A stretch of DNA of 64,000 nucleotides from an uncultured Leptospirales bacterium. GTDB taxonomy: Bacteria; Spirochaetota; UBA4802; UBA5550. This document shows positions 11,071 through 47,164 of this stretch, in pieces. The stretch lies in assembly GCA_964512685.1 (NCBI GenBank), contig CAZEJW010000004.1, positions 3,398 through 67,397 of the forward strand, in the 5' to 3' direction. A model generated the notes under the pieces. The model saw only the letters and a program-made list of their open reading frames with translations. It made no database searches and was not told the DNA's origin. Every line of letters begins with the position of its first letter. Position 1 is the stretch's first letter. The position numbers were made by a program, and so were the translations under genes.

Positions 11071-14000
11071 ATGTTTGAAGGTAAAAAGATGGTATCAATT
11101 GACGGAAATATGGCAGCTGCATATATATCCTATGCGTTTACAGAGGTCGCGGCAATTTATCCAATAACACCTTCTTCTCCTATGGCTGAACATATTGATG
11201 AGTGGTCTTCAGAGGGTGAAGTTAATATATTCGGTGAGAGAGCCAGGGTTATTGAGATGCAGTCTGAGGGCGGTGCTTCGGGTGCTGTTCATGGGTCTCT
11301 CCAGGCCGGGGCTCTTACATCCACATATACTGCATCTCAGGGCCTGCTTCTAATGCTTCCCAATATGTATAAAATTGCAGGAGAATTACTGCCTGCTGTT
11401 TTTCATGTAAGCGCACGTTCATTATCAATACAGGCTTTGTCTATTTTTGGTGATCACTCAGATGTTTACGCAACAAGACAGACCGGCTTTGCTCTTCTGG
11501 CGAGCGGTTGTGTTCAGGAGGTAATGGATCTCGGAGCCATCGCTCATCTTGCAGCGATTCATTCCCGCGTTCCGTTTCTTCATTTTTTTGACGGATTCAG
11601 GACGTCTCATGAAATAAATAAGATATCTCTTGTTGAATTCGATGATGTCAGGAGACTTGTTAATTATGATACTCTGGATGATTTTAGAAATTCTGCATTG
11701 AATCCCTCAAAGCCTGTTACGCGCGGGACAGCTCAGAACCCGGATATTTATTTTCAAAGCAGGGAGGTTATCAATACATTTTATGATGCAGTCCCTGATA
11801 TTGTCGCTGAATACATGACAAAGTTAGGAGATATTACCGGAAGATATTACCGGCCCTTTGATTATTATGGCCATCCTGAGGCAGAGAGAATTATCGTTGC
11901 AATGGGCTCTGTTACTGAAACAATCAAAGAGACAATAGATTATTATCTCGCTAAGGATGAAAAGATAGGCCTTGTTAGCGTGCATTTATACAGGCCTTTT
12001 TCAGAGAAATATCTTTTTGAGGTGATGCCGGACACCGTTAAGCGAATTGCTGTTCTTGACAGAACAAAGGAGTCAGGCGCAAACGGTGAACCGCTTTATC
12101 TTGATATTCGAAACGCTTTTTATGCTGCTGATGTGAAGCCGGTTATTGTTGGCGGAAGATATGGGCTTGGCTCAAAGGATACAACGCCATCACAGATCGC
12201 TGCTGTTTATACTAATCTTGCAATGGAAGAACCTAAAAATGATTTTACTATTGGAATAATTGATGATATCACTTTTAAATCGCTTCCTGAGGATGAAGAA
12301 ATTTACTCGGTTCCCGATGGCACTTATGCGGCAAAATTCTGGGGACTTGGATCAGACGGTACCGTAGGCGCAAATAAAAATTCAATCAAGATTATTGGGG
12401 ATACAACGGATTATTACACTCAGGGATACTTTTCTTATGATTCAAAAAAATCAGGCAGTGTAACCATTTCACATCTCAGATTCGGAACGAGCCCGATCAG
12501 ATCTACATATCTGATAAAAATGCCGGATTTCGTTGCCTGCCATGTTCCCTCTTATATCAGTAAGTATGATGTTTTGAATGGGCTGAAGCCCGGAGGTATT
12601 TTTTTGCTGAACACTCTATGGGATGCTGATGAAATAAAGAAAAAAATTCCTGATTCTATGAAGAAGTATCTTGCAGGCAATGATATAAATTTTTATATCA
12701 TTAATGCAACAGCTATTGCTGAAGATGTAGGACTATCCGGCAGGATAAATACTATAATGCAGGCGGCATTTTTTAAGCTAGCTGATATTATTCCGTATGA
12801 GAAGGCTGAGTACAGGATGAAGAAGGCGGTCAAGGATACCTACGAAAGAAAAGGAGAGAAAATTCTCAATGCTAATTATGCGGCTATTGACAGGGGTATC
12901 TCCGGTCTGGTCAGGGTTAATATTCCGGCAGAATGGAAAAAAATAAAACCGCACGAAGCAAAGGATGAAAGGGAACTTCCGTGGTTTGTCAAAAACATCG
13001 CAGAACCGATGAACCGTTTCGAGGGTGATCTTCTGCCCTTGAGTGTTTTTAAGGATATGCCGGATGGTACATTCCCTCCTGGAAGCACTGCATATGAAAA
13101 GAGAGGTATTGCGGTTAACGTACCGGAGTGGCAGGCAGACAATTGTATTCAATGCAATAAGTGTTCTTTTGTATGCCCTCATGCGGTCATCAGGCCTTTC
13201 CTTCTGGATGAAAGGGAGGCTAAAAGGGTTCCGGAGGGGACTGAACTGGTTGACGCTAAAGGGAAGGGGTTCGAAGATCTTCTGTACAGGATACAGGTGA
13301 GTGTCCTTGACTGTACCGGATGCGGCAACTGTGCTTTTATCTGTCCGGCAAAAGAGAAGGCCTTGATAATGAAACCTTTGCAATCTCAAATGAATGAGGC
13401 TGAAAGATGGGAGTACATGAATTCGAATGTCACTTACAAGCCATATATAATTTCAAAGACAACGGTGAAGGGCAGTCAGTTCGCCAGGCCGTTGTTTGAA
13501 TTTTCCGGTGCATGTGCTGGATGTGGTGAAACACCGTATATAAAACTCGTAACACAGCTTTTTGGTGACAGGATGATGATTGCGAACGCTACCGGGTGTT
13601 CGTCTATCTATGGAGGATCAGCCCCTGCAACACCTTATACCGTAAATGATGAGGGATGCGGACCGGCATGGGCGAGTTCTCTTTTCGAGGATAATGCTGA
13701 ATATGGACTTGGAATGAAAACCGGTGTTGATCAGATCAGGAGAAGGATTATCGTACTGGCGCGAAACATGATGGGAACGGATTGTTCATCCGAGCTTCAT
13801 AGAGTACTCAATGAATGGATTGCTGCGCGTCAGGATCCCGAACGGTCAAGGGAATTATCACACAGACTCATCCCCCTGCTTGAAAGATCTGAAAGCCCTG
13901 AGGCGGCTGAGATTCTGAAACTCAGGGATTACCTTGCCAAGAGGTCTGTCTGGATTATTGGTGGTGACGGATGGGCTTATGACATTGGTTATGGTGGCCT

Positions 14001-14607
14001 GGATCATGTACTCGCTTCAGGAGAAGATGTAAATATCCTTGTGCTGGATACAGAGGTTTATTCAAATACCGGAGGTCAGTCTTCAAAGGCAACACCGGCT
14101 TCTGCTGTGGCAAAATTCGCAAATGCAGGAAAACGGGTAGGTAAAAAAGATCTTGGAATGATGGCAATGGCCTATGGCTATGTATATGTAGCTCAGGTTG
14201 CAATGGGAGCAAACCAGGCTCAGTATATCAAGGCACTGGTAGAAGCTGAGGAATACAGAGGTCCTTCCCTTATTATTGCATATTGTCCCTGTATAACACA
14301 TGGCATATATACCGGAATGGGAACAAGTCAGGAAGAGGAAAGAAAGGCAGTTGAGGCAGGATACTGGTTCCTTTACAGGTATAATCCTCTGCTTGAAAAA
14401 CAGGGCCAGAATCCTTTTCAGATAGATTCAAAAGAACCTGACTGGAATAAATTTTATGATTATCTCATGGGTGAGGTCAGGTATACTTCTCTTGATTCAG
14501 GATTCCCGGAGGTATCAAAGAAGCTCTACAGTTCTGCCGAAAGAGATGCAAAATGGAAGTACAGGAGGTATAAACTCCTGGCGGGAATAGATACCTCCGT
14601 TGGGTGA
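11071..14607 (+). CDS. nifJ: pyruvate:ferredoxin (flavodoxin) oxidoreductase, single-polypeptide type
   Basis: 1178 aa. 'AIYPITPSSPMAE', two ferredoxin motifs 'CIQCNKCSFVCP' and 'CTGCGNCAFICP', and TPP site 'IIGGDGWAYDIGYGG'. GGAGGG SD at 11062-11067. Confidence 0.96.
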   Translation: MFEGKKMVSIDGNMAAAYISYAFTEVAAIYPITPSSPMAEHIDEWSSEGEVNIFGERARVIEMQSEGGASGAVHGSLQAGALTSTYTASQGLLLMLPNMYKIAGELLPAVFHVSARSLSIQALSIFGDHSDVYATRQTGFALLASGCVQEVMDLGAIAHLAAIHSRVPFLHFFDGFRTSHEINKISLVEFDDVRRLVNYDTLDDFRNSALNPSKPVTRGTAQNPDIYFQSREVINTFYDAVPDIVAEYMTKLGDITGRYYRPFDYYGHPEAERIIVAMGSVTETIKETIDYYLAKDEKIGLVSVHLYRPFSEKYLFEVMPDTVKRIAVLDRTKESGANGEPLYLDIRNAFYAADVKPVIVGGRYGLGSKDTTPSQIAAVYTNLAMEEPKNDFTIGIIDDITFKSLPEDEEIYSVPDGTYAAKFWGLGSDGTVGANKNSIKIIGDTTDYYTQGYFSYDSKKSGSVTISHLRFGTSPIRSTYLIKMPDFVACHVPSYISKYDVLNGLKPGGIFLLNTLWDADEIKKKIPDSMKKYLAGNDINFYIINATAIAEDVGLSGRINTIMQAAFFKLADIIPYEKAEYRMKKAVKDTYERKGEKILNANYAAIDRGISGLVRVNIPAEWKKIKPHEAKDERELPWFVKNIAEPMNRFEGDLLPLSVFKDMPDGTFPPGSTAYEKRGIAVNVPEWQADNCIQCNKCSFVCPHAVIRPFLLDEREAKRVPEGTELVDAKGKGFEDLLYRIQVSVLDCTGCGNCAFICPAKEKALIMKPLQSQMNEAERWEYMNSNVTYKPYIISKTTVKGSQFARPLFEFSGACAGCGETPYIKLVTQLFGDRMMIANATGCSSIYGGSAPATPYTVNDEGCGPAWASSLFEDNAEYGLGMKTGVDQIRRRIIVLARNMMGTDCSSELHRVLNEWIAARQDPERSRELSHRLIPLLERSESPEAAEILKLRDYLAKRSVWIIGGDGWAYDIGYGGLDHVLASGEDVNILVLDTEVYSNTGGQSSKATPASAVAKFANAGKRVGKKDLGMMAMAYGYVYVAQVAMGANQAQYIKALVEAEEYRGPSLIIAYCPCITHGIYTGMGTSQEEERKAVEAGYWFLYRYNPLLEKQGQNPFQIDSKEPDWNKFYDYLMGEVRYTSLDSGFPEVSKKLYSSAERDAKWKYRRYKLLAGIDTSVG

Positions 14608-17372: not shown

Positions 17373-17445
17373 GCCAGCTTAGCTCAGTTGGTAGAGCATG
17401 TCACTCGTAATGACAAGGCCGCCGGTTCGATTCCGGCAGCTGGCT
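17373..17445 (+). tRNA. tRNA-Thr (anticodon CGU)
   Basis: Folded by hand into a cloverleaf: acceptor gccagct/agctggc, D-arm gctc/gagc, anticodon stem tgtca/tgaca with loop ctCGTaa, T-arm gccgg-ttcgatt-ccggc. No encoded CCA. Confidence 0.92.
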
Positions 17446-17560: not shown

Positions 17561-17679
<119 letters not shown>

Positions 17680-31917: not shown

Positions 31918-32736
31918 ATGAAAAAAGAAATTACAGTCATAAGCGGGTGTGACAGCGGTATTGGCAGGGCAGTAGCTGAATTACTTGTTTCAAAAGGCGA
32001 AACTGTGGTAGTATCCTATCTTAGAGACAATCCTTTTATTTCGTGTAATAATTGTTTTTCATATAAGATGGATTTTATGGTAAAAAGCGATATTACAAAA
32101 TTTATCAAAAATGTGAATGCCCTTTGTTCAAAGGACTATTCAATAAAATGTCTTTTCAATAATGCAGGTACAGCCACTGGTGGCCCAATAGAGGATTTAG
32201 ATATGTCTGTTTATATGGATGTTTTCAGAATAAATTTTTTTGCACATATCGAAATAATCCAGGGTTTCATCCCCATATTAAAAAAATCCAGGGGGTTGAT
32301 TATTAATAATGGTTCAATGGCAGGCAGGGTTGCTCCCCCCTTTATGTCCCCATATGCATCATCAAAATATGCAATGGAAGGTTTTACTGATTCTCTCAGA
32401 CGTGAGATGAAACCGTTCGGAATAAGAACTGTTCTGCTTGAGCCGGCAAGTGTTGCAACCCCAATCTGGAACAATGCCAAGGAGGTGGACAGATCGTTCG
32501 TAAGTGATGTTTATAGGGAATCAGTAAACGAATTTATGGAGACATTTGTTGAGTCCGGAAATTATGGGCTTTCTCCTGATGTTGCAGCACAGAGAATATA
32601 CAACATTATGCAAAAAAAGAATCCGGCGCCACGTTATATTATTTCAAAAAAATGGCTTCTGTCATATCTTCAAACCATGGCTCCAGACAGGCTTATGGAT
32701 TATATTGCCCAAAAAGTGTGCAGTGTGAATTACTGA
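31918..32736 (+). CDS. short-chain dehydrogenase/reductase (SDR)
   Basis: Start at ATG 31918. 'VISGCDSGIGRAVA' (TGxxxGxG-type), 'NNAG' and 'YASSKYAMEG' (YxxxK). Confidence 0.88.
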   Translation: MKKEITVISGCDSGIGRAVAELLVSKGETVVVSYLRDNPFISCNNCFSYKMDFMVKSDITKFIKNVNALCSKDYSIKCLFNNAGTATGGPIEDLDMSVYMDVFRINFFAHIEIIQGFIPILKKSRGLIINNGSMAGRVAPPFMSPYASSKYAMEGFTDSLRREMKPFGIRTVLLEPASVATPIWNNAKEVDRSFVSDVYRESVNEFMETFVESGNYGLSPDVAAQRIYNIMQKKNPAPRYIISKKWLLSYLQTMAPDRLMDYIAQKVCSVNY

Positions 32737-32756
32737 TCCATAGTATTATAATCAAA

Positions 32757-35243
32757 ATGACAGAAATAAGAAACCATATGCTGACTTTTATCCATAATTA
32801 CAAAAAAACGGCTATTGTATATGGAGATAGCACTGTATCCTATTCTGAATTAATAAGGATAATAAAATCCTATACTGGTTTGTTTATTTTACAGAAAGGT
32901 GAAAGGGGAGCTATCTTCTCAGAGAACAGACCCGAATGGATTTATTCATTATACTCTATATGGCTTAACAAGGGAATTGCAGTACCTTTGGATTATAGCC
33001 TTCCAAAAAAAGAATTGCTGAAGATTATTGAAGATTCAAAACCATCTTTTTTTTTCTGTTCCCGCTCTGAAGAAGATAATCTCAGAAATTTGCTTGTTGC
33101 TGCCGGGCTCAATTCCAGTGTAATTATTTTTGAAGATATAATCATATCAGATAATGAAGTTGCTGCTGAAGATATAATAATTGATTATTCTGATGAAACC
33201 GCACTTCTCATGTATACCTCGGGAACCACAGGTGAACCAAAAGGAGTAATGTTATCATATGATAATATTATGACAAGTATAAGGGGAATCTATGACCTTC
33301 GTATGATAACTGAAAATGATAGAATGGTTGCATTGCTTCCTTTTTATCATATTTTTCCTCTTCAGGGGGGAGTAACGGCCCCTCTTTACGCCGGAGTTAC
33401 CATACATTTTATTAAAACACTTCAGGCAAATGAAATACTAAAAGTTTTAAAGAAATACCGTATAACCATGTTTTTGGGTGTGCCCCGAATTTATGAGATG
33501 TTTCATTCTGCAATTATAGAAAAAATAAACCGATCTGTGACTCTGAGAATAATACAGAAATTATTGCGGAAATCAGGACTTCGTATGCCAGGCAGGATAA
33601 TTTTTTTTATGATTCACAGAGCTTTTGGAGGTCATATTCATTCATACCTGACAGGTGGAGCTGCTATCGATCCTGATGTAATGAAAGATCTTGTATCTCT
33701 TGGTTTTCGTATAGTTGAAGGTTATGGGGCAACTGAGGCAGGACCCCTAATTGCATTCAATCCCTTTTCAAAAGTAAAGCCTGGATCTGTTGGCCTCCCC
33801 ATGCCCGGCACTGAAGTGCAAATAAGGAATGGAGAAATAGTGGCCAGAGGTAAAAATATCATGAAGGGATATTATGGCAGGCCTGATTATACTGAAAATG
33901 TAATGAAACACGGATGGTATCATACCGGTGATTCAGGATATTTCGATAAAGACAGGTATCTTTATATTACCGGAAGAATTGATGAAGTGATTATTCTTTC
34001 AAATGGCAAGAAGCTGTTTCCTGCAAGTATTGAAAAGTCTTTAATAGAAATAACGTCATTGATAAAAGAAGCTGGAGTTGTGCTCTATGATAATATTTTA
34101 ACCGCTGTACTGAATCCAGATTATACGGCATTTGATACTGATAAAGAAGATGAAATCGAAGAAGAAATAAAAATACAGGTCGTTGATAAATATAATTCTT
34201 CAGTCCCGGATTATCTTAAAATCAGAAGATTCAAAATTACGGTAAGTGAACTTCCAAGAACAAGGCTTGGAAAACTGAAGAGATATCTTTTATCTGACCT
34301 TGTAATCCCAAAAACAATCTCTCGAACTTTAGATGATGAACCGGATTACATCGAATACAGGCTTATCCGTGATTATCTTAAAAAGCTTAAAAGCAGGGAA
34401 GTCTTTTATAACAACAGATTTGATTTCGATCTTGCTCTTGATTCTCTTGATATGGTTGAGCTAATATCATATATCGAGAGTGTTTTTGGTGTAAAGATTG
34501 CCCCGGAATATTTGGCTAAATATTCAACCCCAAAATCTCTCGCTGAATTGATAAGAATGAGTAAGACAAGGATTAAGAATGCAGATATTGATTGGAGAAA
34601 AATACTAATAGATGAAAACAAAGAGAGCCTGGCGGGAAAACGGCTGGGGGTCAGGCTTACACACCTGGCGCTTGACAGGGTAGTCAGCAGGTATTTTAAT
34701 CTTGAGGTATCCGGAATAGCTGACATGCCAAAACAGCCTTTTATTATTGTTCCTAATCATCAAAGTTATATTGATGTTCCTTTAATTGGGTCTGCAATGC
34801 CTCTTGAAACAGTGAGAAATACATTCTTCATCGTTAAACAGAGTCGCATAATGTCAAAGTTTGTTGCCATGTTCACCCTCAACAGAAATATTATTGTTGT
34901 CGATGCAGAGAAAAATGTCAGAGAGTCGATGCAGAAAGCAGCAGCTGTTCTTCTTGCAGGGAAAAATATCATGATTTTCCCCGAAGGGATAAGAACCCGT
35001 GATGGGAAAATACAGCCATTCAGAAAATCCTTTGCAATTCTTGGCAGTGTGCTTTCTGTTCCAATCGTTCCTGTTGCTGTTACAGGCGCATATGAATCAA
35101 TGCCTCCCGGAGCTGTTTTCCCGGGAAAAGGGAGTGTAAAAATTCATTTTGCTCCTCCGATTTATCCTGAAGAAAAGAATGTGGATGATATAGTTGATGA
35201 GACTATGGATATAATTAAAGCTTTGATGTCTTCCGGAAACTAA
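32757..35243 (+). CDS. tri-domain acyl-AMP ligase / carrier (PP-binding) / lysophospholipid acyltransferase fusion
   Basis: Start at ATG 32757. 'LMYTSGTTGEPKGV' and 'GYGATEAG' (AMP-binding), 'LDSLDMVELISYIE' (phosphopantetheine Ser), 'NHQSYIDV' (HX4D) and 'FPEGIRTRDG' (LPLAT motifs). Confidence 0.85.
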   Translation: MTEIRNHMLTFIHNYKKTAIVYGDSTVSYSELIRIIKSYTGLFILQKGERGAIFSENRPEWIYSLYSIWLNKGIAVPLDYSLPKKELLKIIEDSKPSFFFCSRSEEDNLRNLLVAAGLNSSVIIFEDIIISDNEVAAEDIIIDYSDETALLMYTSGTTGEPKGVMLSYDNIMTSIRGIYDLRMITENDRMVALLPFYHIFPLQGGVTAPLYAGVTIHFIKTLQANEILKVLKKYRITMFLGVPRIYEMFHSAIIEKINRSVTLRIIQKLLRKSGLRMPGRIIFFMIHRAFGGHIHSYLTGGAAIDPDVMKDLVSLGFRIVEGYGATEAGPLIAFNPFSKVKPGSVGLPMPGTEVQIRNGEIVARGKNIMKGYYGRPDYTENVMKHGWYHTGDSGYFDKDRYLYITGRIDEVIILSNGKKLFPASIEKSLIEITSLIKEAGVVLYDNILTAVLNPDYTAFDTDKEDEIEEEIKIQVVDKYNSSVPDYLKIRRFKITVSELPRTRLGKLKRYLLSDLVIPKTISRTLDDEPDYIEYRLIRDYLKKLKSREVFYNNRFDFDLALDSLDMVELISYIESVFGVKIAPEYLAKYSTPKSLAELIRMSKTRIKNADIDWRKILIDENKESLAGKRLGVRLTHLALDRVVSRYFNLEVSGIADMPKQPFIIVPNHQSYIDVPLIGSAMPLETVRNTFFIVKQSRIMSKFVAMFTLNRNIIVVDAEKNVRESMQKAAAVLLAGKNIMIFPEGIRTRDGKIQPFRKSFAILGSVLSVPIVPVAVTGAYESMPPGAVFPGKGSVKIHFAPPIYPEEKNVDDIVDETMDIIKALMSSGN

Positions 35244-35612: not shown

Positions 35613-35849
35613 TAAAATACTCCTGTAAGGTAATTCAGCGGTAGAAAGTTCCGCCTTAAGCCTGTCAAATCCGCAATTAACTTAAAACTGATTGTAATTC
35701 AGGCAAGAAAATCGGTGGGTTATTAAAGCTTTTTCACAGCCATTAAATCATGCAGCCGGTTTGTGTCAATGACTATAAAGAAAATATAGTGTCAGTCCCG
35801 ATCTTTTTTTTATTGACACTATATATTTATTATTTCATCTGATTATATA

Positions 35850-35981
<132 letters not shown>

Positions 35982-36074
35982 TGATTGCATCTGTTTCCCT
36001 TCAGAGGATTAACTGCGCAGATTATCATCTCATACCCTGAATATTGAAATAACCTAATATAACAGGGAGAAATT

Positions 36075-36728
36075 ATGAACAGACCACTTCTATCAAGATT
36101 CGGAAATTCGGAAAAAAGAATTACAACAGCTGTAGAGTATCTCAAAGCCGGTAAGGGAGTTCTTCTTGTGGATGATGAAGATCGTGAAAACGAGGGGGAT
36201 ATTATCTTTCCTGCGGAAACAATCACAATTGATCAGATGGCAATGCTGATAAGACACTGCAGCGGAATCGTTTGTCTTCCGATGACTGATGAAAAAATGA
36301 AACAGCTTGATCTGCCGGACATGGTTGATAAAAATACAAGCGCAAACAGAACAGCCTTCACTGTTTCGATAGAGGCTGCAACCGGAGTAACAACCGGCGT
36401 ATCTGCATCTGACAGGGTAACAACAATAAGAACGGCAGTTTCTGAAGGATGCAGACCTGATGAACTGAACAGACCCGGGCATGTTTTTCCTCTCAGAGCT
36501 GCACCTGGAGGAGTTTTTTCCAGACGCGGCCATACTGAAGGAACTGTGGATATCATGAGGATTGCCGGATACAAACCCGCCGGAGTACTCTGTGAACTTA
36601 CCAACGAGGATGGAACAATGGCACGCTTGCCGGAAATAATTGTATTTGCTGAAAAAAATGATTTAACCGTGCTCACAATTGAGGATATAGTACACTACAG
36701 AAAAATGAATGATAAGCAGGGAATATAA
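36075..36728 (+). CDS. ribB: 3,4-dihydroxy-2-butanone-4-phosphate synthase
   Basis: 217 aa. '[20 protein letters not shown]' and '[10 protein letters not shown]'. Confidence 0.95.
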
Positions 36729-37543: not shown

Positions 37544-37822
37544 TCAGAAAGGTGTTTTGCTTTTCAGCATTTCCAGATCATTTTTTTCTGAGTGAGTTCT
37601 TTCCTCTTTTACGCAGGTATCTTCATCGCATTTTGGAAGTTTCACTGCCTGCTTTGTAGTTTTTTTTTCGGTATTTGTCTTCAGTGAAGATCCGGTTGCT
37701 TCATGCTGTATCTTCTCAGCAGTTCCGGGATTTTTTTTCATACGGGTGTCTTCATCCTTCATAATGAAAAGTAATATCAGGCTGATACATGCCATCAGCA
37801 GGGCAATAATTTTTTTCATCAT
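37544..37822 (-). CDS. small secreted/anchored hypothetical protein
   Basis: Start at ATG 37822 (GGGAGA SD). Signal/anchor 'MMKKIIALLMACISLILLF' followed by a charged Lys/Glu/Thr-rich tail. Confidence 0.5.
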   Translation of the reverse strand: MMKKIIALLMACISLILLFIMKDEDTRMKKNPGTAEKIQHEATGSSLKTNTEKKTTKQAVKLPKCDEDTCVKEERTHSEKNDLEMLKSKTPF

Positions 37823-37997
37823 TAATCTCCCATAGTCTAATATTTTACGATTTGTTTTTGAGGTCAAACTGTTTATTCGATTCACGATATTTTTTTCTGT
37901 CAGTAATTGCTGGAGCATGAATGTTTTTTGCTTTCCTGTTTCTTAATTTTCAGAGAACGATAAAAGTTATTTAATGAAATCAAAAATACTGAATCGT

Positions 37998-38738
37998 TCA
38001 GGTTGTCTTATTGAAAAAATTTTCCATTACATCTTTCAGTTTCTGATTGAGGTTGTTTTTTTTAGGCAGGTTATTATGGTCAAGGTAGAGTTTTCTGTTG
38101 ATTTCAATCTGTATCCAGGGAAGGGGCTTGCCCCCATAGTGTGATGTAATAAAACCGCCGTTGAATGGCTTATTTATTCTGATTTCATCTTCACTGAGAC
38201 CGGCGCATTCCACGAATGATTCTTTCAGCTTTTGGATGAGCTCAAATGAGGCCGATCTGCCATTTGCGTTAGCAAGACAGACAGCGGGCCTTGGCTGTCC
38301 GGCGTTGGGTGATATAATAGGTGCTGTATGATTCATTGAATGACAGTCAAAGCAGGCAATAATTTTATTATTCGCAAGATGTTTTGTGAGCATATCATGC
38401 CAGGGGTAATAATATTTGTTTAGTAAAAGAGATACAAGGTCAGGCCTTTCTTCAATATCTATGGTGTAGATCTTCCTTTTGAAACAGGTAAAGTTTTTTA
38501 TAACACCGTCAGCGCATAGAGGTGGAAGAGAATCCGGTTTCCTGTTAAGATCAACATAAGGTCTCGCAATATCGCTTTTTATTATATGGTCTGATATATC
38601 ATCAAAATCATAAAGCTCCTGAGTGAATGGATCAATATCCTGTATTATATCATATAACGTTAAAATATTGATATCCTTTACCTCATCGGGAATGCCTGTG
38701 CCTCCGTGAGGAACTGAAAAAAGAAAAGGCAGTTTCAA
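37998..38738 (-). CDS. N-formylglutamate amidohydrolase (FGase) family hydrolase
   Basis: 246 aa with a TTG start overlapping the ggt stop (TTGA). 'FSVPHGGTGIPDE' and 'FDCHSM'. Confidence 0.7.
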   Translation of the reverse strand: MKLPFLFSVPHGGTGIPDEVKDINILTLYDIIQDIDPFTQELYDFDDISDHIIKSDIARPYVDLNRKPDSLPPLCADGVIKNFTCFKRKIYTIDIEERPDLVSLLLNKYYYPWHDMLTKHLANNKIIACFDCHSMNHTAPIISPNAGQPRPAVCLANANGRSASFELIQKLKESFVECAGLSEDEIRINKPFNGGFITSHYGGKPLPWIQIEINRKLYLDHNNLPKKNNLNQKLKDVMENFFNKTT

Positions 38739-40366
38739 TCAAGACCTCCGGCAATACCGTCGCTGCTGATTTCTGCCCCTCCCTGAAATCCGCGGCCTGT
38801 CTGTTTTTTCAGTACTGCGTGTATTGCTCCCAGATAGAATGAATAATCCTCTCTTCTGTCTATCCTGTATCCGTTTTCTTCGAGATGAGTTATAACTTCC
38901 GGCGGGAAACGATTAGCCTCAATGCTTACCCTTCCACCCATTGAACAGTGCAACCTTGGCAGAAGCATTGCCTCGCTTATGGGAAGATGTTCATCTATTA
39001 CATGGATAAGAAACTGTGCAATTGATGATAGAATTCTTTCACTCCCCGGACTTCCAACTGCCATCCAGACTTCATTTCCGGCATAAATCAGGGTAGGTGC
39101 AACAGATGCCCATGGATTAGCATTCGGCCTTAGGTAGAAAGGATGCGCAGGAAGGGAATAGTCAAAATCAAGAAGATAGTTATTATAAAGAAAACCTGCC
39201 CCCTGAACAGCTGCCTTGCTGCCGTATACCCTTTCTATTGATTGCGTGAGTGATACGGCTGTTCCGTTTTTATCAATTACAGAAAGGTGAGTCGTTTCAC
39301 CTCTCAGTTCGTCCATGGATTCCCTTACAGGAAGGGGCATTCCTGCTGAATTAATTATTTCCTTTATTGACGCATGGCAGAATTTTTTGTTGAGAATATC
39401 CATGTCTGCAATTTGCGCGTAAAAGTTAGGGTCATACGGACGGTCATTACGTTCAAGGATTGCCTTACGGAATATTTCACATAGGAGATGAGCTCTTCTT
39501 TTCTCATCAGTTCTGAATGTTGCAGGAGAGAGATAGTTAATCATCATGAGTGTATAAAGCAGAGAACGTCCTGCTCCGGGAGGAGGCATCGAATAAACCG
39601 GCAGTCCTCTGAATTTTCTTCTGAGAGGCTTCCTTTCTATGGGCCATGGAATGAGGGCCAGATCGTCAAACCTCAAAAGACCTCCATGTTCTCTCATGTC
39701 AGAATCAATCATCTTTGCAATTTTTCCTGAATAGAAACTTTTAACACCTGTTTCTGAAATTGTTTCAAGTGTTGAGGCCAGTTCTTTCTGAATAAAGGTT
39801 TCGCCCGGGACGGGTGGAATCTCTTCCCTGAAAAAATATTTCATACCTGATCTTGATTCAACTTTTTCGAAGTTTTCTTTTTCACGTTTTAACAGGCTGT
39901 GTTGTAATTCAGTTATACGGTATCCCACTGAGGCTGTTTCAATAGAAGGACTGACAATCATATTCCAGGGAAGGGTGCCGTATTTTTCATGAACATAGAA
40001 AAGGGTTGCAAGAGTAGAGGGTACAGTCGTTGCTCGATAACCATAAGATTTGTCATATTTATATATAGAGTTTACATGTGCAAGGGAAGGGGCGCGTGAC
40101 GAACCGTCAATGGCAATGACTCTGTTTTTATTTCCAATGAGCATCATTGTCTGTCCGCCAAGGCCTGAAGCCTGAGGTTCACATACTCCAAGGGAAAGAG
40201 CTGCGGTGCATGCAGCATCCACAGCATTTCCACCCGCATTGAGAATTCTTATACCGGCCAGGGTTGCATCAGGAAATGCAGTGGATATCATCCCGTTAGA
40301 TGATTCTGACCATTTGCAGTCACCAGAAGGCTTGAATGAATTCTCTATGTTATCAATATTTATCAT
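38735..40366 (-). CDS. ggt: gamma-glutamyltranspeptidase family protein (no obvious signal peptide)
   Basis: 543 aa. 'GGNAVDAA', autoprocessing/nucleophile 'GETTHLSVIDKNGTAVSLTQSIE', and 'GSPGSERI'. ATGA overlap with the upstream gene. Confidence 0.88.
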   Translation of the reverse strand: MINIDNIENSFKPSGDCKWSESSNGMISTAFPDATLAGIRILNAGGNAVDAACTAALSLGVCEPQASGLGGQTMMLIGNKNRVIAIDGSSRAPSLAHVNSIYKYDKSYGYRATTVPSTLATLFYVHEKYGTLPWNMIVSPSIETASVGYRITELQHSLLKREKENFEKVESRSGMKYFFREEIPPVPGETFIQKELASTLETISETGVKSFYSGKIAKMIDSDMREHGGLLRFDDLALIPWPIERKPLRRKFRGLPVYSMPPPGAGRSLLYTLMMINYLSPATFRTDEKRRAHLLCEIFRKAILERNDRPYDPNFYAQIADMDILNKKFCHASIKEIINSAGMPLPVRESMDELRGETTHLSVIDKNGTAVSLTQSIERVYGSKAAVQGAGFLYNNYLLDFDYSLPAHPFYLRPNANPWASVAPTLIYAGNEVWMAVGSPGSERILSSIAQFLIHVIDEHLPISEAMLLPRLHCSMGGRVSIEANRFPPEVITHLEENGYRIDRREDYSFYLGAIHAVLKKQTGRGFQGGAEISSDGIAGGLD

Positions 40367-42528
40367 TTTCCCTTTTTCAGCTCAAGGATGAGCAGTGCAA
40401 GAAGTGATGCGCGTTCAGGAAGGCTGTGACGCAGAATAAATTCCCTGTGTTCTGTTTCAAAAGCGCCAACTGGCCCCAGTCCGTCAACGATGGTTTTTGA
40501 TTCATCTGCACTGCTGATATCAGAAGAGCTCCAGCGGTGTTCTTCAAGTATTCTTATATCAAGGTCATTGCTTATTCGTTTTATTGATCTGAAAAGGTGT
40601 TCTGTTTCATCGGTTTTTATTACCGGCAGTCTTCGTATACCGCCCTCGACCCTGAACCTGCATGAAGAGGCATTTGATTTCTTTACAAGCAGCCTTATCC
40701 TGTCGTCAATTTTTTCTGCCTTTTTTCTGTCATTGAAACGGATACTGAATGAAACCTCTCCTTCTGCAAAAATTTCCGCAATGTCACTCCTGAGCTCTAC
40801 AGATCTTGGGGTTATTACTATACCGTTTTTTTCATCGGTCATTTCAGTTATTGAAGAAACAAGTTTTAGAAATCTTGCGGATGAAGAAGCCACGTCACTC
40901 GAACCTTTCGGGTTCATTAAATTCATCTGTGCAGTATAAACAGCTGCCCCGGAACGTGAGGTGATAACCGTACTTCCCATTGAGCTTCCTGAAAGTCCGA
41001 TAACATATCCTGATCTCTGTGAAAAATCTCTTATGTAAACCTGTGAAAATTTTCCCTGAAGGGCATTATCTGTGGTGAAGAGTATTCCGGTTTTAATGTT
41101 CCTGAGAGCCCTTAAAAATCTCAGCGACTGAAGCGCTGCCAGGAGAACACATATCCCACCTTTATTCTCCCAGATTCCGGTTCCGTACAACCTGTCAGAA
41201 GTTTCCCTGAAAGAATTGTGTTTTGTAAAAGAAATCGGGCTGTCAAGGTGACAAACGATGAGTATATCAAGAGACCTTTCAGGTGTGTTTGAGAAAAAAA
41301 GAATATTCCCAACTTCAACCTGAGGTATGACCTGTAGAAGAAATCCAAGTTGTGAGAGCTGTTTGGATATTATATTTCCAAGATTATTTACTCCGTCAAT
41401 ATTTCTCACAAAAGAGTTTATGTTTACAAGATCTGAAAGTAATTTTTCTGTCTTGTCCTGCCTGCTTCTGAGGAACCCTCTGATCTTCGCTGGAAGGTTA
41501 TTTTTTTTCTCTGACAGAACAGACTCATTGCGATTGACAGGTGCGGTGTTTCTTTCGAAATATCGAACAGTTGCGACATCTAGCATCTTGTTGACCAGTT
41601 TTTTGTAGTCATAACCTGCAACTTTAGCGGCCTGTACATATGAACCGGTAGTTCCAAGGCTTGCCATGGAATTGATTTCCAAAAGGTAGATGTTATTGTC
41701 GCTGTCCAGTCTGATATCAACCCTCGCAAAGTCTCTTAGCCCGAGACTTCTGAATGCCTCTTTGCTGAGGTCTGCCATTCTTTTTGAAAGGTCTTCAGAA
41801 AGAATGGCAGGGCATATTTTATTCCTGGGTTTGAATTTTTTGTTTTCTACTGTCTGTATCCCAAATGGATCATTTTCAAGATCTATTTCGAGAATAGGAA
41901 AGACTTCAGGGTTGCCATTGCCCAGCAACCCAACACAGAATTCCCGCCCTGGAATAAACTGTTCGACCAGTGCGGGTTGTGAGTATTCTTCTATGATGAA
42001 ATCAATGGCATCCTGAAGTTCATTTTTATTTTCTGCAATTCTAAGACCAAAAGAAACAGCTTCCATCTTTGGTTTTACAATTACAGGAAACCCAAGATCA
42101 TCAGGATATTCATCAGCAGATGAATACACCTGGAAGTGAGGAGTGGGAATATTGTATTTCTGCATGATGATTTTTGTGATCACCTTGTCCAGGGCCAGTG
42201 TATGTCCTTCCGGATTCGATCCTACATATGGAATCCCAAGCATCTCGAGCATGGAAGGCAGGTGCGTGTATCTCGCTTCGCCCTGAATTCCGTATGCCAT
42301 ATTGAATACCATACCCATTTTTTCGCCTTCCATGACACTGGGCATGAATTCCTGAAGCCTTTCAATGAGATGCATATCTCCATTGATTACACGTACATTA
42401 TGGCCGGCTGATTCCAGAGAATCAGCGACCATCCGAACTGTTTGAGGATTATAGATTTCCTTGTTCTGTATGCCAAAACGGTTTATAACTTTGGAAATGT
42501 CTCTGTTGTATATTATTGCTACTTTCAT
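40363..42528 (-). CDS. fusion of a D-Ala-D-Ala-ligase-like ATP-grasp enzyme and an M20-peptidase-like domain
   Basis: Start taken at ATG 42528 ('MKVAIIYN'), downstream of a terminator. ATP-grasp: 'FPVIVKPKMEAVSFG', 'EQFIPGREFCVG', 'ARVDIRLDSDNNIYLLEINS'. M20-like: 'ILIVCHLDSP', 'GIWENKGG', 'ILFTTDNALQG'. Confidence 0.78.
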   Translation of the reverse strand: MKVAIIYNRDISKVINRFGIQNKEIYNPQTVRMVADSLESAGHNVRVINGDMHLIERLQEFMPSVMEGEKMGMVFNMAYGIQGEARYTHLPSMLEMLGIPYVGSNPEGHTLALDKVITKIIMQKYNIPTPHFQVYSSADEYPDDLGFPVIVKPKMEAVSFGLRIAENKNELQDAIDFIIEEYSQPALVEQFIPGREFCVGLLGNGNPEVFPILEIDLENDPFGIQTVENKKFKPRNKICPAILSEDLSKRMADLSKEAFRSLGLRDFARVDIRLDSDNNIYLLEINSMASLGTTGSYVQAAKVAGYDYKKLVNKMLDVATVRYFERNTAPVNRNESVLSEKKNNLPAKIRGFLRSRQDKTEKLLSDLVNINSFVRNIDGVNNLGNIISKQLSQLGFLLQVIPQVEVGNILFFSNTPERSLDILIVCHLDSPISFTKHNSFRETSDRLYGTGIWENKGGICVLLAALQSLRFLRALRNIKTGILFTTDNALQGKFSQVYIRDFSQRSGYVIGLSGSSMGSTVITSRSGAAVYTAQMNLMNPKGSSDVASSSARFLKLVSSITEMTDEKNGIVITPRSVELRSDIAEIFAEGEVSFSIRFNDRKKAEKIDDRIRLLVKKSNASSCRFRVEGGIRRLPVIKTDETEHLFRSIKRISNDLDIRILEEHRWSSSDISSADESKTIVDGLGPVGAFETEHREFILRHSLPERASLLALLILELKKGK

Positions 42529-42549
42529 TCTTTGTGAATATCCTGCCTT

Positions 42550-42580
42550 AAAACAAAAGTGTCCTCGACAGAACGAGGAC
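42550..42580 (-). terminator. intrinsic terminator after the small acidic protein genes
   Basis: On the minus strand: gtcctcg-ttctgt-cgaggac followed by 'acttttgtttt'. This makes the annotated ATG at 42582 implausible. Confidence 0.7.
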
Positions 42581-42613
42581 ATTTATGCTAATCAAAATTT
42601 ATGTGCCTGAAGT

Positions 42614-42808
42614 TTATTTTTCTTCAGCTGCCTCTTCATCCGAAACAACATCTTCTTCATCCTTTTGAATGTCTTTATCTGTTGTTTTGCTGCTTTTGCT
42701 CTCAATTTTGTCACTGGCTTCAGAACCGGTTTTTTTGTCAGCACAACCGGCAGCCAGCAAAACAGAAAGGATGAGCGTGAGAATAATTGAAATGTATTTT
42801 TTCAACAA
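42614..42808 (-). CDS. small acidic lipoprotein
   Basis: 64 aa with a TTG start. Lipobox 'LLAAGC' followed by a Ser/Asp/Glu/Lys-rich tail. Confidence 0.55.
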   Translation of the reverse strand: MLKKYISIILTLILSVLLAAGCADKKTGSEASDKIESKSSKTTDKDIQKDEEDVVSDEEAAEEK

Positions 42809-42811
42809 TTT

Positions 42812-43066
42812 CTACCTGCTTTCTTCGCTGCTTTCTGTTTCATCAGTACCATAATCTTCCTGAGAGTTGTCAGTACTATCTTCATTGCTTCCCTGATCAT
42901 CATTTTCTTCTTTCGCATTACCTGTGTCAGTGTCAGTATTCTGGCAGTAGAATTCACCATTCTGGCTGTTGACTTTTGTATCAGCAAAAGCTCCTGCTGA
43001 TATCATAAGAAAAGCTGCAAGCATGAAGAAAGACATAACTCTTTTCAAATATGATTCTTTTTTCAT
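42812..43066 (-). CDS. small secreted, highly acidic low-complexity protein
   Basis: Start at ATG 43066 (GGAGG SD about 10 nt upstream). Signal peptide '...MISAGAFA' followed by a D/E/S/T/N-rich ~55 aa. Confidence 0.55.
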   Translation of the reverse strand: MKKESYLKRVMSFFMLAAFLMISAGAFADTKVNSQNGEFYCQNTDTDTGNAKEENDDQGSNEDSTDNSQEDYGTDETESSEESR

Positions 43067-43191
43067 TGTTTTAATTACCTCCGATAGTATCAATGGATGC
43101 TGGATATATAATACCGGAGAGGAAACTAGTCAATTCAGGTATCTGTGATTTAAAGATAACAAAAAGTATTAGAATATTTGGTGGTAATCAC

Positions 43192-45381: not shown

Positions 45382-46116
45382 TTAAAGCCAGCCAAGAGGG
45401 ATAAAAACAGCCAGACTTGCAACAACTACAATCGCCATTATCGAAACGAATTTAATCTGATCTCTTGTCTGTTCCATATCATAAACATGATATGATACCA
45501 TCCAGAAGGGAAGGTATCCTGTGAGAAATATCAGCCATGGAAAAGAAGGCTTCCACCACCAGTAGTTCCATTTTAAAGCGCCAATAAGATTAAGGATTAT
45601 TTCAACAATAACGCACATCCAGGCCATAATGATTGCAATGAAATGGCGATTGTTGATCTTGCCAAAAACAAGTTTGTTTTTATCTTCTGGAAGAAGTTTT
45701 GTTCCTGCAATTCCCATAAGCAGGAACATAAAAATAATTTCGATATTCCATCCCATTAGAGGCTGATATGCTGTGGGATATGAACACATCCATACTGCCG
45801 AGAATTTTCCTGATGCTGTGAAAAAAAGACCGTTCCATATTTCATTGAAAGCATCCATCAGAAAAAAGGCAAGCCCTGCAAATACTGCTGAAAGATTTTT
45901 ATTTCTTATTTCATCGGAGTATGCATTTATTACAATCAGCAGCAGGGGAATCACATACCATTTAAAATAAGTATAGTCCCTTAGTATTGACTCTGCAAGT
46001 AATGTCCCTTCACCTTTGCCAGTGTAATCAACACAGCAGGGAATCAGCCATATGATGGCGTAACCGGCAGCAATAAGAATCCAAATTATTTTTTCCTGTC
46101 TGGATTTTTCTGTCAT
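45382..46116 (-). CDS. integral membrane protein of unknown function (~7 TM)
   Basis: 244 aa, Trp/aromatic-rich hydrophobic segments, no recognisable motif. Confidence 0.6.
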   Translation of the reverse strand: MTEKSRQEKIIWILIAAGYAIIWLIPCCVDYTGKGEGTLLAESILRDYTYFKWYVIPLLLIVINAYSDEIRNKNLSAVFAGLAFFLMDAFNEIWNGLFFTASGKFSAVWMCSYPTAYQPLMGWNIEIIFMFLLMGIAGTKLLPEDKNKLVFGKINNRHFIAIIMAWMCVIVEIILNLIGALKWNYWWWKPSFPWLIFLTGYLPFWMVSYHVYDMEQTRDQIKFVSIMAIVVVASLAVFIPLGWL

Positions 46117-46246: not shown

Positions 46247-47164
46247 TTATTGGTTTTCTGCAGCAATTTTTTGAAAAGCTGCAAGATCAGAGTGTACTTC
46301 TGTTGTTATTGGATTGCGCTTGTATTTGAATACTTTGTAGAAATGATAAATAAATACAGCGATATTGGAACCAATTGCAAGGATACTGATAAACATAAAT
46401 GCTGCCGGATCATTGCTTGCACCAACTGCAAATGTTCCTTTATCAAAGTAGCGTGAGAAGCACATTATAAACATCATCCATATTGCCAGAGTCTGGGCGC
46501 GGTGCTGAAGCCATGCTCCTTTCTTAATCATAAATGCAGGAAGTGTAGCAGAAATAAGAAGAGCGGCTCCCGCATAGAAAGCTCTGTGTGGAATACAGTT
46601 ATAAATATAAGCAAAGTTCCACAGATCATAAGCTATAACCCAGAACCACATCATGTCTGGCCATACCATATCACTGTGCTTGTCTTTACTGATGATTATC
46701 CCTGTCCATCCGGATATCGTGATAATACTGAGAATACCGGCAACTGCATTCATGATATTCCATGGGCCAACAAGATATGTGACACCATCGATATTGCCAT
46801 TACATGCATAGAATTGAAATTCCCGGGCTACAGCTTCCATGATATTTACTGCCAGAATAAATGCAGGGAAGAAGAGGGCAAGTTTATTGGTTTGTAATTT
46901 TTTGATAAACCTAAGAAAAAGGAATCCAAGAGCTCCTGCAAGGCATGAATAGACTTTTGCCCAGTGGAACCAGTTCCCAACACTGCTGTCACTGCCTGCC
47001 GTTTTGGGCCATACTGTAAACGTAAGAACAATCGGAAGAACAAGAAATATCGCAAGAGAAAACCATTTGTTCAATCTGGCGATTTCATTCACCAGCATGA
47101 GTCCACCAAGTACTACGAACCACATTATTGCTGAATACCATGGGATTGATTCAAATAAAAACAT
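46247..47164 (-). CDS. integral membrane protein of unknown function (~9 TM)
   Basis: 305 aa, hydrophobic throughout. Preceded by an SD ('ggaggc') and the palindromic operator candidate. Confidence 0.6.
   Translation of the reverse strand: MFLFESIPWYSAIMWFVVLGGLMLVNEIARLNKWFSLAIFLVLPIVLTFTVWPKTAGSDSSVGNWFHWAKVYSCLAGALGFLFLRFIKKLQTNKLALFFPAFILAVNIMEAVAREFQFYACNGNIDGVTYLVGPWNIMNAVAGILSIITISGWTGIIISKDKHSDMVWPDMMWFWVIAYDLWNFAYIYNCIPHRAFYAGAALLISATLPAFMIKKGAWLQHRAQTLAIWMMFIMCFSRYFDKGTFAVGASNDPAAFMFISILAIGSNIAVFIYHFYKVFKYKRNPITTEVHSDLAAFQKIAAENQ

Follow-up and report, generated by a model that had tools for sequence, protein, structure and literature searches.

The question raised by this locus is what is made by an operon in which an ATP-grasp ligase is encoded together with two amide-cleaving enzyme types. 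The operon lies on the minus strand of a 64,000-nucleotide stretch of DNA from an uncultured Leptospirales bacterium (contig CAZEJW010000004.1), referred to here as the window. Its first gene (40363..42528, stop codon included) encodes a 721-aa fusion of a Ddl-type ATP-grasp ligase with a pseudo-M20 peptidase domain. The second (38735..40366) encodes a 543-aa Ntn hydrolase of the gamma-glutamyltransferase (GGT) family, predicted to be cytoplasmic, and the third (37998..38738), with a TTG start, a 246-aa amidohydrolase of the FGase family (PF05013). The conserved core of the system is the fusion gene together with either the GGT or a class-I glutamine amidotransferase (GATase), the two partners being mutually exclusive. 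As its function, a glutamine-dependent ATP-grasp amidoligase that would make a glutamate- or glutamine-derived solute for osmotic homeostasis is tentatively favoured.

Operon structure

The stop codon of the fusion gene and the start codon of the GGT gene have the sequence ATGA at 40363-40366 in common, with a ribosome-binding site (AAAGGGA) ahead of it, and the GGT stop and the FGase TTG start likewise share TTGA at 38735-38738. Both 4-nt overlaps had been claimed in an earlier note made from the letters of the sequence, and both were found where it had placed them. The three genes form one translationally coupled operon, and as the same gene order was found again in dozens of unrelated contigs, the arrangement goes beyond chance.

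A terminator-like hairpin with a T-run (42560..42581, minus strand; 8-bp stem with five G-C pairs, then CTTTTGTTTT) closes a small upstream open reading frame (ORF) for a lipoprotein, and the ATG of the fusion gene follows about 31 nt further downstream, which agrees with the earlier description of a single unit behind a terminator. The longest ORF for the first gene spans 40363-42582 (minus strand). A start at 42582 was rejected and the start placed at 42528, as had been proposed, because the hairpin lies inside the 5' extension and the homologues all begin with MKVAIIYN. The distance between hairpin and start codon is so short that no separate promoter is obvious for the operon, which may rely on read-through past the hairpin.

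The M20 half of the fusion protein

The C-terminal half of the fusion protein (residues 345-721; 40366..41496, minus strand) was assigned to the carboxypeptidase G2 (CPG2) fold, dimerisation lobe included, with loss of metal ligands and of the catalytic Glu. Residues 345-720 are matched by the NCBIfam models PRK07338 and glutamate carboxypeptidase, the Pfam Peptidase_M20 threshold was not reached by the fusion protein of the window, and the closest sequence relative of this half is CPG2 (phmmer, 3e-12). When an AlphaFold model was compared by Foldseek, the M20 half gave a template modelling (TM) score of 0.80 against CPG2 (1cg2), at a predicted local distance difference test (pLDDT) score above 90. 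The likeness to proteins of the CPG2/PRK07338 type thus extends to the same two-lobe fold, in which a dimerisation domain is inserted in the catalytic domain, and an intact member of this type is present in the gene cluster of a related locus, L027.

The motifs of this domain had earlier been read by eye as partly degenerate, with CHLDSP kept and with ENKGG and TDNALQG in place of the catalytic motifs, and an explicit alignment with CPG2 confirmed this. His112 and Asp114 of CPG2 are kept in the window protein (CHLD). The bridging Asp141 is replaced by Glu (ENKGG), Glu175 and Glu176 by Asn and Ala (TDNALQG), Glu200 by Ser and His385 by Glu. The degeneracy holds in 91 full-length homologues, in which the His112 position is occupied by His (30), Asn (24), Pro (20), Ser (11), Ala (5) or Glu (1). 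Glu175 is Glu in 9/91 and His385 is His in 2/91, and neither of the metal-binding residues Glu176 and Glu200 is Glu in any homologue (0/91). Unlike in CPG2, therefore, the bridging Asp, the catalytic Glu, both metal-binding Glu and the second His are unconserved in every clade of the fusion. The same degeneracy is found in more distant fusions, with identities as low as 38%, and in two stand-alone relatives, whereas the active relatives aligned with them, among them the stand-alone M20 protein of L027, retain the full residue set.

The M20 half is still under selection and not decaying, given its mean pairwise identity of 39-48% among the 91 homologues, compared with 17% for the variable interdomain linker (residues 326-344; 41497..41553, minus strand; pLDDT below 50), and given its many invariant polar residues, which include D429, D487, R525, R633, D657, H664 and W666. 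As judged from the alignment, it is a conserved pseudoenzyme and cannot work by the known di-zinc mechanism of hydrolysis. Because the catalytic site is lost, this half most likely has a binding or scaffolding role. Relatives of 550 aa, considered as a new GATase-M20 architecture, were rejected as such, being N-terminally truncated fragments of the same fusion.

The ATP-grasp half of the fusion protein

The N-terminal half (residues 1-325; 41554..42528, minus strand) is matched by Pfam Dala_Dala_lig_C (PF07478) over residues ~32-320 at 7e-35, and sequence matches to Ddl and VanA proteins in the PDB were obtained at ~1e-26 (phmmer; 2dln, 8evz and 3se7). The AlphaFold model of the fusion, with a mean pLDDT of 82.9, gave a TM score of 0.82 against DdlB over the ligase half (Foldseek). 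Together with the PRK07338 match and the TM score of the M20 half, these results uphold the previous reading of the first gene as a union of a Ddl-like ATP-grasp ligase with an M20 domain. The ATP- and Mg-binding motifs VKP, RVD and LLEIN (E-x-N) are invariant in the family and the Arg that stabilises the acyl-phosphate is present, as in Ddl and VanA. Mean pairwise identity of this half among the 91 homologues, across phyla, is 69%.

The likeness to Ddl does not extend to the N-terminal domain. The residues that bind D-Ala1 and D-Ala2 in E. coli DdlB are Glu15, Ser150, Tyr216 and Ser281. The family profile aligns to DdlB only from residue 89 on, so that the region of the D-Ala1 site (the first 88 residues) is not comparable, and the region equal to DdlB Ser281-Leu282 holds a family-specific NSMASLG..G motif (reading SLG..G-S). 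The fusion also differs from Ddl and VanA in scoring far below every curated Ddl/Van cut-off (PRK01372, 163.7 vs 243 bits; TIGR01205, 148.8 vs 245.65 bits), in carrying an M20 domain and in standing in a gene context unrelated to the cell wall. Since the first 88 residues cannot be aligned with Ddl, the substrates are expected to be different, and this half is predicted to be an intact Ddl-fold ATP-grasp ligase with non-Ddl substrates.

The GGT and FGase genes

The second gene product is covered over its full length by PF01019 (G_glu_transpept; 2e-107) and matches E. coli GGT at 3e-64. Its nucleophile, Thr358, lies in the motif GETTHLS (codon 39293-39295). The Thr is kept in 31/31 operon-linked GGTs, and the Ser equivalent to Thr409 and the context of the autoprocessing site are also conserved. 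Enterobacterial and Bacillus GGTs are secreted or periplasmic. No N-terminal signal sequence was seen, by eye, in the GGT of the window or in the 31 operon-linked GGTs, in which about 25 polar residues without a hydrophobic segment precede the conserved core. An intact nucleophile without a signal peptide had been noticed in the window protein, and the combination is borne out in the 31 operon-linked GGTs. The operon GGT is predicted to be cytoplasmic because it has no signal peptide.

In the donor pocket (E. coli numbering), Arg114 is replaced by Ser in 29/31 operon GGTs, Gln430 by Tyr in 31/31 and Asn411 by Glu in 26/31, with Asp433 kept in 27/31. Gly484 is replaced by Ser in 31/31. The operon GGT thus resembles E. 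coli Ggt (PDB 2dbu/2e0w) in its full-length PF01019 domain, Thr nucleophile, Asp433 and autoprocessing context, but differs from it in the missing signal peptide, in the altered residues 114/430/484 and in its score against the TIGR00066 equivalog model (332.3 bits, under the cut-off of 357.85). To go by these residues and scores, it is not a canonical GGT.

The third gene product is matched by PF05013 over its full length (1.7e-42) and reaches 73.3 bits against the HutG model TIGR02017, the cut-off of which is 278.75. A search of solved structures with this protein returned only spurious TAL-repeat matches, with no significant single stretch. An FGase gene follows the GGT gene in 15/23 GGT loci with room for a third gene, and in none of the GATase-type loci. 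The trio of fusion, GGT and FGase, as the earlier note had it, is thus real and recurrent in other genomes, but the FGase is an accessory gene of the GGT clade and not a core member.

Since the fusion, the GGT and the FGase all score under the equivalog cut-offs, they should not carry the names Ddl, GGT and HutG. The parts belong to well-known superfamilies, and each appears to fail the defining test of the named family concerned (Ddl, active M20, canonical GGT, HutG). These scores (163.7 vs 243, 332 vs 358 and 73 vs 279) also bear on the simplest explanation of the locus, namely a chance adjacency of housekeeping genes for a true D-Ala-D-Ala ligase, a glutathione GGT and a HutG of the histidine pathway, in keeping with the source annotations that call the fusion 'D-alanine--D-alanine ligase'. 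Such an explanation is hardly credible: it is refuted by the sub-cut-off scores and by the conservation of gene order across phyla, and no hut genes were found within 10 kb of the operon.

Distribution of the family and its partner genes

Hundreds of relatives of the fusion were found, with about 440 metagenome stretches matched and 40 clusters at 50% identity. Their sources include Spirochaetales, Melioribacteraceae, Bacteroidales, Firmicutes, Thermohalobacter, KSB1, Chitinispirillia and a contig of a 'Methanogaster' metagenome-assembled genome (MAG), and in present annotation they go by the name of 'D-alanine--D-alanine ligase' or 'M20 hydrolase'. The closest homologue, at 66%, is found on a Logan contig with the same neighbouring two-component genes. 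Solved structures found by sequence search gave only generic Ddl and CPG2 matches for the fusion. No characterised homologue or named pathway of this composition was found in the full-text literature (with the amidoligase survey of Iyer et al., 2009, outside its scope), in line with the earlier statement that no nameable pathway fits.

A census of partner genes covered 91 fusion genes in about 90 loci, 14 of which were too short to judge. A GGT gene without a signal peptide lies immediately downstream of the fusion in 30 cases, with six more in the same cluster, and a gene for a class-I GATase of ~190 aa lies immediately upstream in 31, with five more nearby. No locus holds both partners, and five informative loci hold neither; the fusion is nearly always paired with one of the two. 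One of the five nearby GATase genes, that of Thermohalobacter locus L005, was rejected as a partner, as it is PabA beside PabB and PabC. The type of partner tracks the phylogeny of the fusion, in which the GATase clade has, at its base, a few branches that are linked to a GGT. The best matches of the GATase are GMP synthase subunit A (1e-33), TrpG/PabA and PF00117 (7e-29), with Peptidase_C26 at 1e-10, and its Cys-His-Glu triad is intact. The usual gap between its gene and the fusion gene, -22 to +24 nt, is typical of subunits of one enzyme. The two partner families are unrelated, but both work through a gamma-glutamyl-enzyme intermediate, which arises from glutamine or from gamma-glutamyl amides. 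Because the GGT and the GATase exclude each other beside the same ligase, cleavage of glutamine or a gamma-glutamyl compound by the partner is suggested to feed or complete the ligase reaction rather than just undo it.

The main rival to this interpretation is a make-and-trim or storage-turnover system, a sharpened form of the make-and-trim pathway of the earlier note, in which the ligase would build a gamma-glutamyl or Glu-containing amide that is hydrolysed by the FGase and by the GGT or a GATase resembling PuuD or gamma-glutamyl hydrolase (GGH). The product could be a gamma-glutamyl-amine or polyamine conjugate, formed in the manner of MfnD or PuuA, or a short oligo-glutamate, and the dead M20 half would be what is left of an amidase that once acted in cis, like that of glutathionylspermidine synthetase/amidase. 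Such a system is a possibility to be taken seriously, if a somewhat doubtful one; the D-amino-acid component that was part of the original proposal is without specific support, the N-terminal substrate domain not being alignable with Ddl. Both partner families hold true gamma-glutamyl-amide hydrolases (GGT; PuuD and GGH of the class-I GATase fold), Peptidase_C26 also matches the GATase and some sources name it as a gamma-glutamyl-GABA hydrolase family protein, but the GATase is much closer to amidotransferase subunits than to C26 hydrolases, and the operon GGT is without an equivalent of Arg114, which binds the gamma-glutamyl alpha-carboxylate. CPG2 and FGase cleave N-acyl-glutamates, so that every component points to glutamate amides. 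If a ligase and an enzyme that hydrolyses its product were made in equimolar amounts from coupled genes, ATP would be wasted in a futile cycle unless there were regulation, although genes for the synthesis and degradation of a storage compound may share an operon, as with cphA/cphB. A set of hydrolases would be in keeping with the two GGT paralogues in each of the loci L051, L052 and L112, and with locus L027, in which a GGT gene and two paralogues of the fusion have an intact M20 gene of the same subfamily next to them. Against such a system, no recurrent oxidase or dehydrogenase genes for steps between making and breaking the bond, as in the Puu pathway, were seen near the module.

The second fusion gene of L027 (5787-7931) is a divergent paralogue directly ahead of the orthologue, an arrangement also present in L028 and L049. 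Its ATP-grasp motifs are altered (VKP to VRP, LLEIN to VLDVN and the loop YGIQGESRYTH to RGIQDGDCFAH), and for this reason it may be inactive in both halves. The L027 cluster also includes a glutamate-2,3-aminomutase-like radical S-adenosylmethionine (SAM) gene, in addition to the GGT and the intact M20. L036 (6637-8595) and L059 (4338-6350) each encode, a few kb or less from the ATP-grasp/M20 fusion, a different fusion of ~660 aa, in which a SAM-dependent methyltransferase is N-terminal to a Ddl-like ATP-grasp domain. It should also be noted that the full fusion-GGT-FGase trio is present on a 12-kb contig binned to 'Candidatus Methanogaster' (L109, QBUT01000034.1), with 58% identity to the window protein; either the trio was transferred horizontally into archaea, or this archaeon-binned contig was assigned to the wrong bin.

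Genomic context of the module

Among 195 genes flanking the module, the most frequent family is the mechanosensitive channel MscS (17 genes), followed by CorA (6). DUF2179, EamA, amino-acid permease, Na/Ca exchanger and TrkA-C genes also recur, and cation-chloride cotransporter genes are likewise recurrent near the module. With the MscS profile, 27 genes were found in 933 kb, in 21/84 non-redundant module loci, compared with 0/18 unrelated control loci (257 kb). Osmoregulatory genes were seen in closest linkage to the module in a KSB1 MAG (L112, 6337-15928), with the gene order GGT-fusion-MscS-GGT-FGase-cation-chloride cotransporter, and in Labilibacter sediminis (L114, 7001-10578), with the order GATase-MscS-fusion; in both, MscS is inside the module. 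A cyclic di-AMP cyclase gene is situated directly upstream of the module in L031, and in L025, the closest relative of the window, a K-channel-like gene adjoins the GGT gene. The linkage to MscS and ion transport points to osmotic homeostasis.

A second and weaker theme is that of polyamine metabolism: arginine-decarboxylase-like, agmatinase and deoxyhypusine-synthase-like genes adjoin the module in ~11 loci, in at least three arrangements. This theme would be accommodated by a make-and-trim system.

Two further explanations draw on less frequent neighbours. In the first, imported gamma-glutamyl, oligo- or peptidoglycan-derived peptides would be salvaged: the GGT and FGase would cut them at gamma-(D)-glutamyl and N-acyl-Glu bonds, and a dipeptide would be rebuilt for reuse by the ligase. 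The L027 cluster has oligopeptide ABC-transporter ATPase genes on its upstream side and an amino-acid permease gene is found beside the fusion gene in Thermohalobacter, but such transporter links are rare. Ddl, M20 and gamma-D-Glu amidases all act in murein peptide recycling; the N-terminal domain of the fusion is not alignable with that of Ddl, the patchy distribution looks like that of horizontally transferred genes, unlike cell-wall housekeeping, and the enrichment of MscS would be left unexplained. Salvage is therefore considered improbable. In the second, which is held to be about as improbable, a low-molecular-weight thiol or a peptide akin to glutathione would be formed, with the ligase extending a gamma-glutamyl dipeptide like the C-terminal domain of GshF and the GGT recycling the product. 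GshF has a Ddl-like synthetase domain and glutathione is classically degraded by GGT, but no recurrent gamma-glutamylcysteine ligase gene was found in the loci. Thioredoxin-reductase and glutaredoxin-like genes do occur near the module, though only in one lineage of five loci and on the opposite strand, and neither the GATase clade nor the MscS link would be explained.

Proposed function

In the amidoligase reading introduced at the outset, the substrate of the ATP-grasp half would be a small molecule of the amino-acid type, probably a member of the glutamate family, and its carboxylate would be phosphorylated. The partner, which is the GGT in the window, would draw on glutamine nitrogen, either by passing ammonia to the acyl-phosphate or by cutting the glutamyl part from a glutamine adduct, and the net outcome would be a neutral solute, either an amide or a compound of the dipeptide type. 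The dead M20 half would act in substrate or effector binding and as a dimerisation scaffold, and the FGase-family enzyme would hydrolyse an N-acyl-glutamate-type by-product, or the solute itself in turnover. Ionic osmolytes of the K-glutamate type would in this manner be converted to a neutral compatible solute, for which MscS would be the release valve. The reading is favoured because the GATase is amidotransferase-like, the partner and ligase genes are coupled, the partner types are mutually exclusive, GGTs can hydrolyse glutamine and a precedent exists in the osmolyte N-acetylglutaminylglutamine amide (NAGGN). A more specific version is correspondingly less probable and is considered doubtful, namely that the cytoplasmic GGT is a nitrogen-delivering partner of the ligase interchangeable with the class-I GATase, that the dead M20 half is a sensor, and that the product is a new compatible solute released through MscS in many anaerobic bacteria of sediment and saline habitats.

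Several points weigh against such an amidoligase. Everything past the anatomy of the proteins and their context is inference, and both substrate and product are hypothetical. No member of the GGT family is known to supply a ligase with nitrogen, and ammonia is rarely known to serve as the nucleophile of an ATP-grasp enzyme other than carbamoyl-phosphate synthetase. No single polypeptide joining the GATase or the GGT to the fusion was found among the 120 closest GATase homologues, so that a physical complex is hypothetical. The FGase is given only a vague role, the recurrent polyamine genes are not explained and the gamma-glutamyl-GABA hydrolase name used by some sources for the GATase would not be expected. 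Finally, the GGT paralogues of L051, L052 and L112, and the combination of a GGT, an intact M20 and two paralogues of the fusion in L027, give more the impression of a set of hydrolases directed at a number of different bonds.

Comparison with known systems

The logic of the module is closest to that of glutamine-dependent ligase systems (NAGGN, CarAB) and of synthetase/amidase fusions (GspSA). In the NAGGN operon (asnO-ngg-peptidase; PA3459-PA3461), a glutamine amidotransferase is encoded with the ligase Ngg, which forms a peptide bond, and a metallopeptidase, and the product is a glutamine-derived dipeptide amide made under osmotic stress (PMC8070244). The same logic of amidotransferase, ligase and metallopeptidase is seen here, but the components are not homologous: the NAGGN amidotransferase is of the asparagine-synthase type, its ligase is fused to a GNAT domain and its peptidase is a separate protein without sign of inactivation. 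No NCBIfam model of the NAGGN family is among the matches listed for the operon proteins.

CarA/CarB and other pairs of class-I GATase and synthetase resemble the sister clade, in which a small GATase gene is coupled to an ATP-grasp gene. They differ in that there is only one ATP-grasp module here, the N-terminal domain of CarA is absent and nothing points to a tunnel, and in that the clade of the window has the GGT in the place of the GATase.

In glutathionylspermidine/trypanothione synthetase-amidase, as in the fusion, one polypeptide combines an ATP-grasp amide synthetase with a domain of hydrolase fold directed at bonds of the same class, and the recurrence of polyamine genes near the module adds to the comparison. 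The hydrolase of glutathionylspermidine synthetase-amidase is an active N-terminal CHAP amidase, whereas that of the fusion is a dead C-terminal M20 domain, and the two are without sequence relationship. The conflict of synthetic and hydrolytic activities in the synthetase-amidase is discussed in PMC2427367.

Surroundings of the operon in the window

The operon is flanked by small acidic ORFs rich in Asp, Glu, Ser and Lys at 42615-42790, 42812-43093 and 37544-37918, all on the strand of the operon (minus). These three ORFs have signal- or lipoprotein-like N-termini (lipoboxes LAAGC and LMAC) and none of them has a Pfam match. Other neighbours in the window are ribB, a gene for a DsbA-like protein and, in divergent orientation, genes for a PAS histidine kinase and a LuxR-type regulator. 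Neither in the window nor in 12 related loci was a riboswitch found ahead of the operon, and PADLOC gave no anti-phage defence match for the four proteins tested. A flavin mononucleotide riboswitch (35846-35986, plus strand; 127 bits) is present directly 5' of ribB, which encodes 3,4-dihydroxy-2-butanone 4-phosphate synthase (36075-36728, plus strand); it is ordinary and unrelated to the operon.

Beyond the two-component genes, two multi-pass membrane proteins are encoded at 46247-47164 and 45382-46116 (both minus strand), one a full-length DUF5692 protein (2e-127) and the other without a family match. On the other side, an 863-aa fusion (32652-35243, plus strand) joins an AMP-binding, acyl-activating domain to a phosphopantetheine carrier and a glycerolipid acyltransferase, with the look of an Aas-type acyl-ACP (acyl carrier protein) synthetase/acyltransferase. 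A tRNA and a 5S rRNA gene stand alone at 17373-17445 and 17562-17678 (plus strand). As no 16S or 23S rRNA gene was detected in the 64 kb and the genes upstream, such as that for pyruvate:ferredoxin oxidoreductase (11071-14607), are protein-coding, this 5S gene is unlinked from the large rRNAs. The presence of pyruvate:ferredoxin oxidoreductase, pyruvate phosphate dikinase and Lnt in the window fits an anaerobic diderm.

Significance

The interest of the family lies in its conserved pseudoenzyme domain, the exchange of GGT and GATase, the linkage to MscS and the number of its members, and cultured carriers exist in Labilibacter sediminis and Thermohalobacter berrensis. The evidence rules out the name 'M20 hydrolase' for the fusion and argues against 'D-alanine--D-alanine ligase'. 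The replacement of a GGT by a class-I amidotransferase beside the same ligase is a natural experiment, which narrows the role of the partner, and if the amidotransferase reading is true, this would be the first such role for a GGT-family protein. The MscS link suggests an unrecognised osmolyte, or a route of glutamate and polyamine homeostasis, in anaerobes whose compatible solutes are poorly known.

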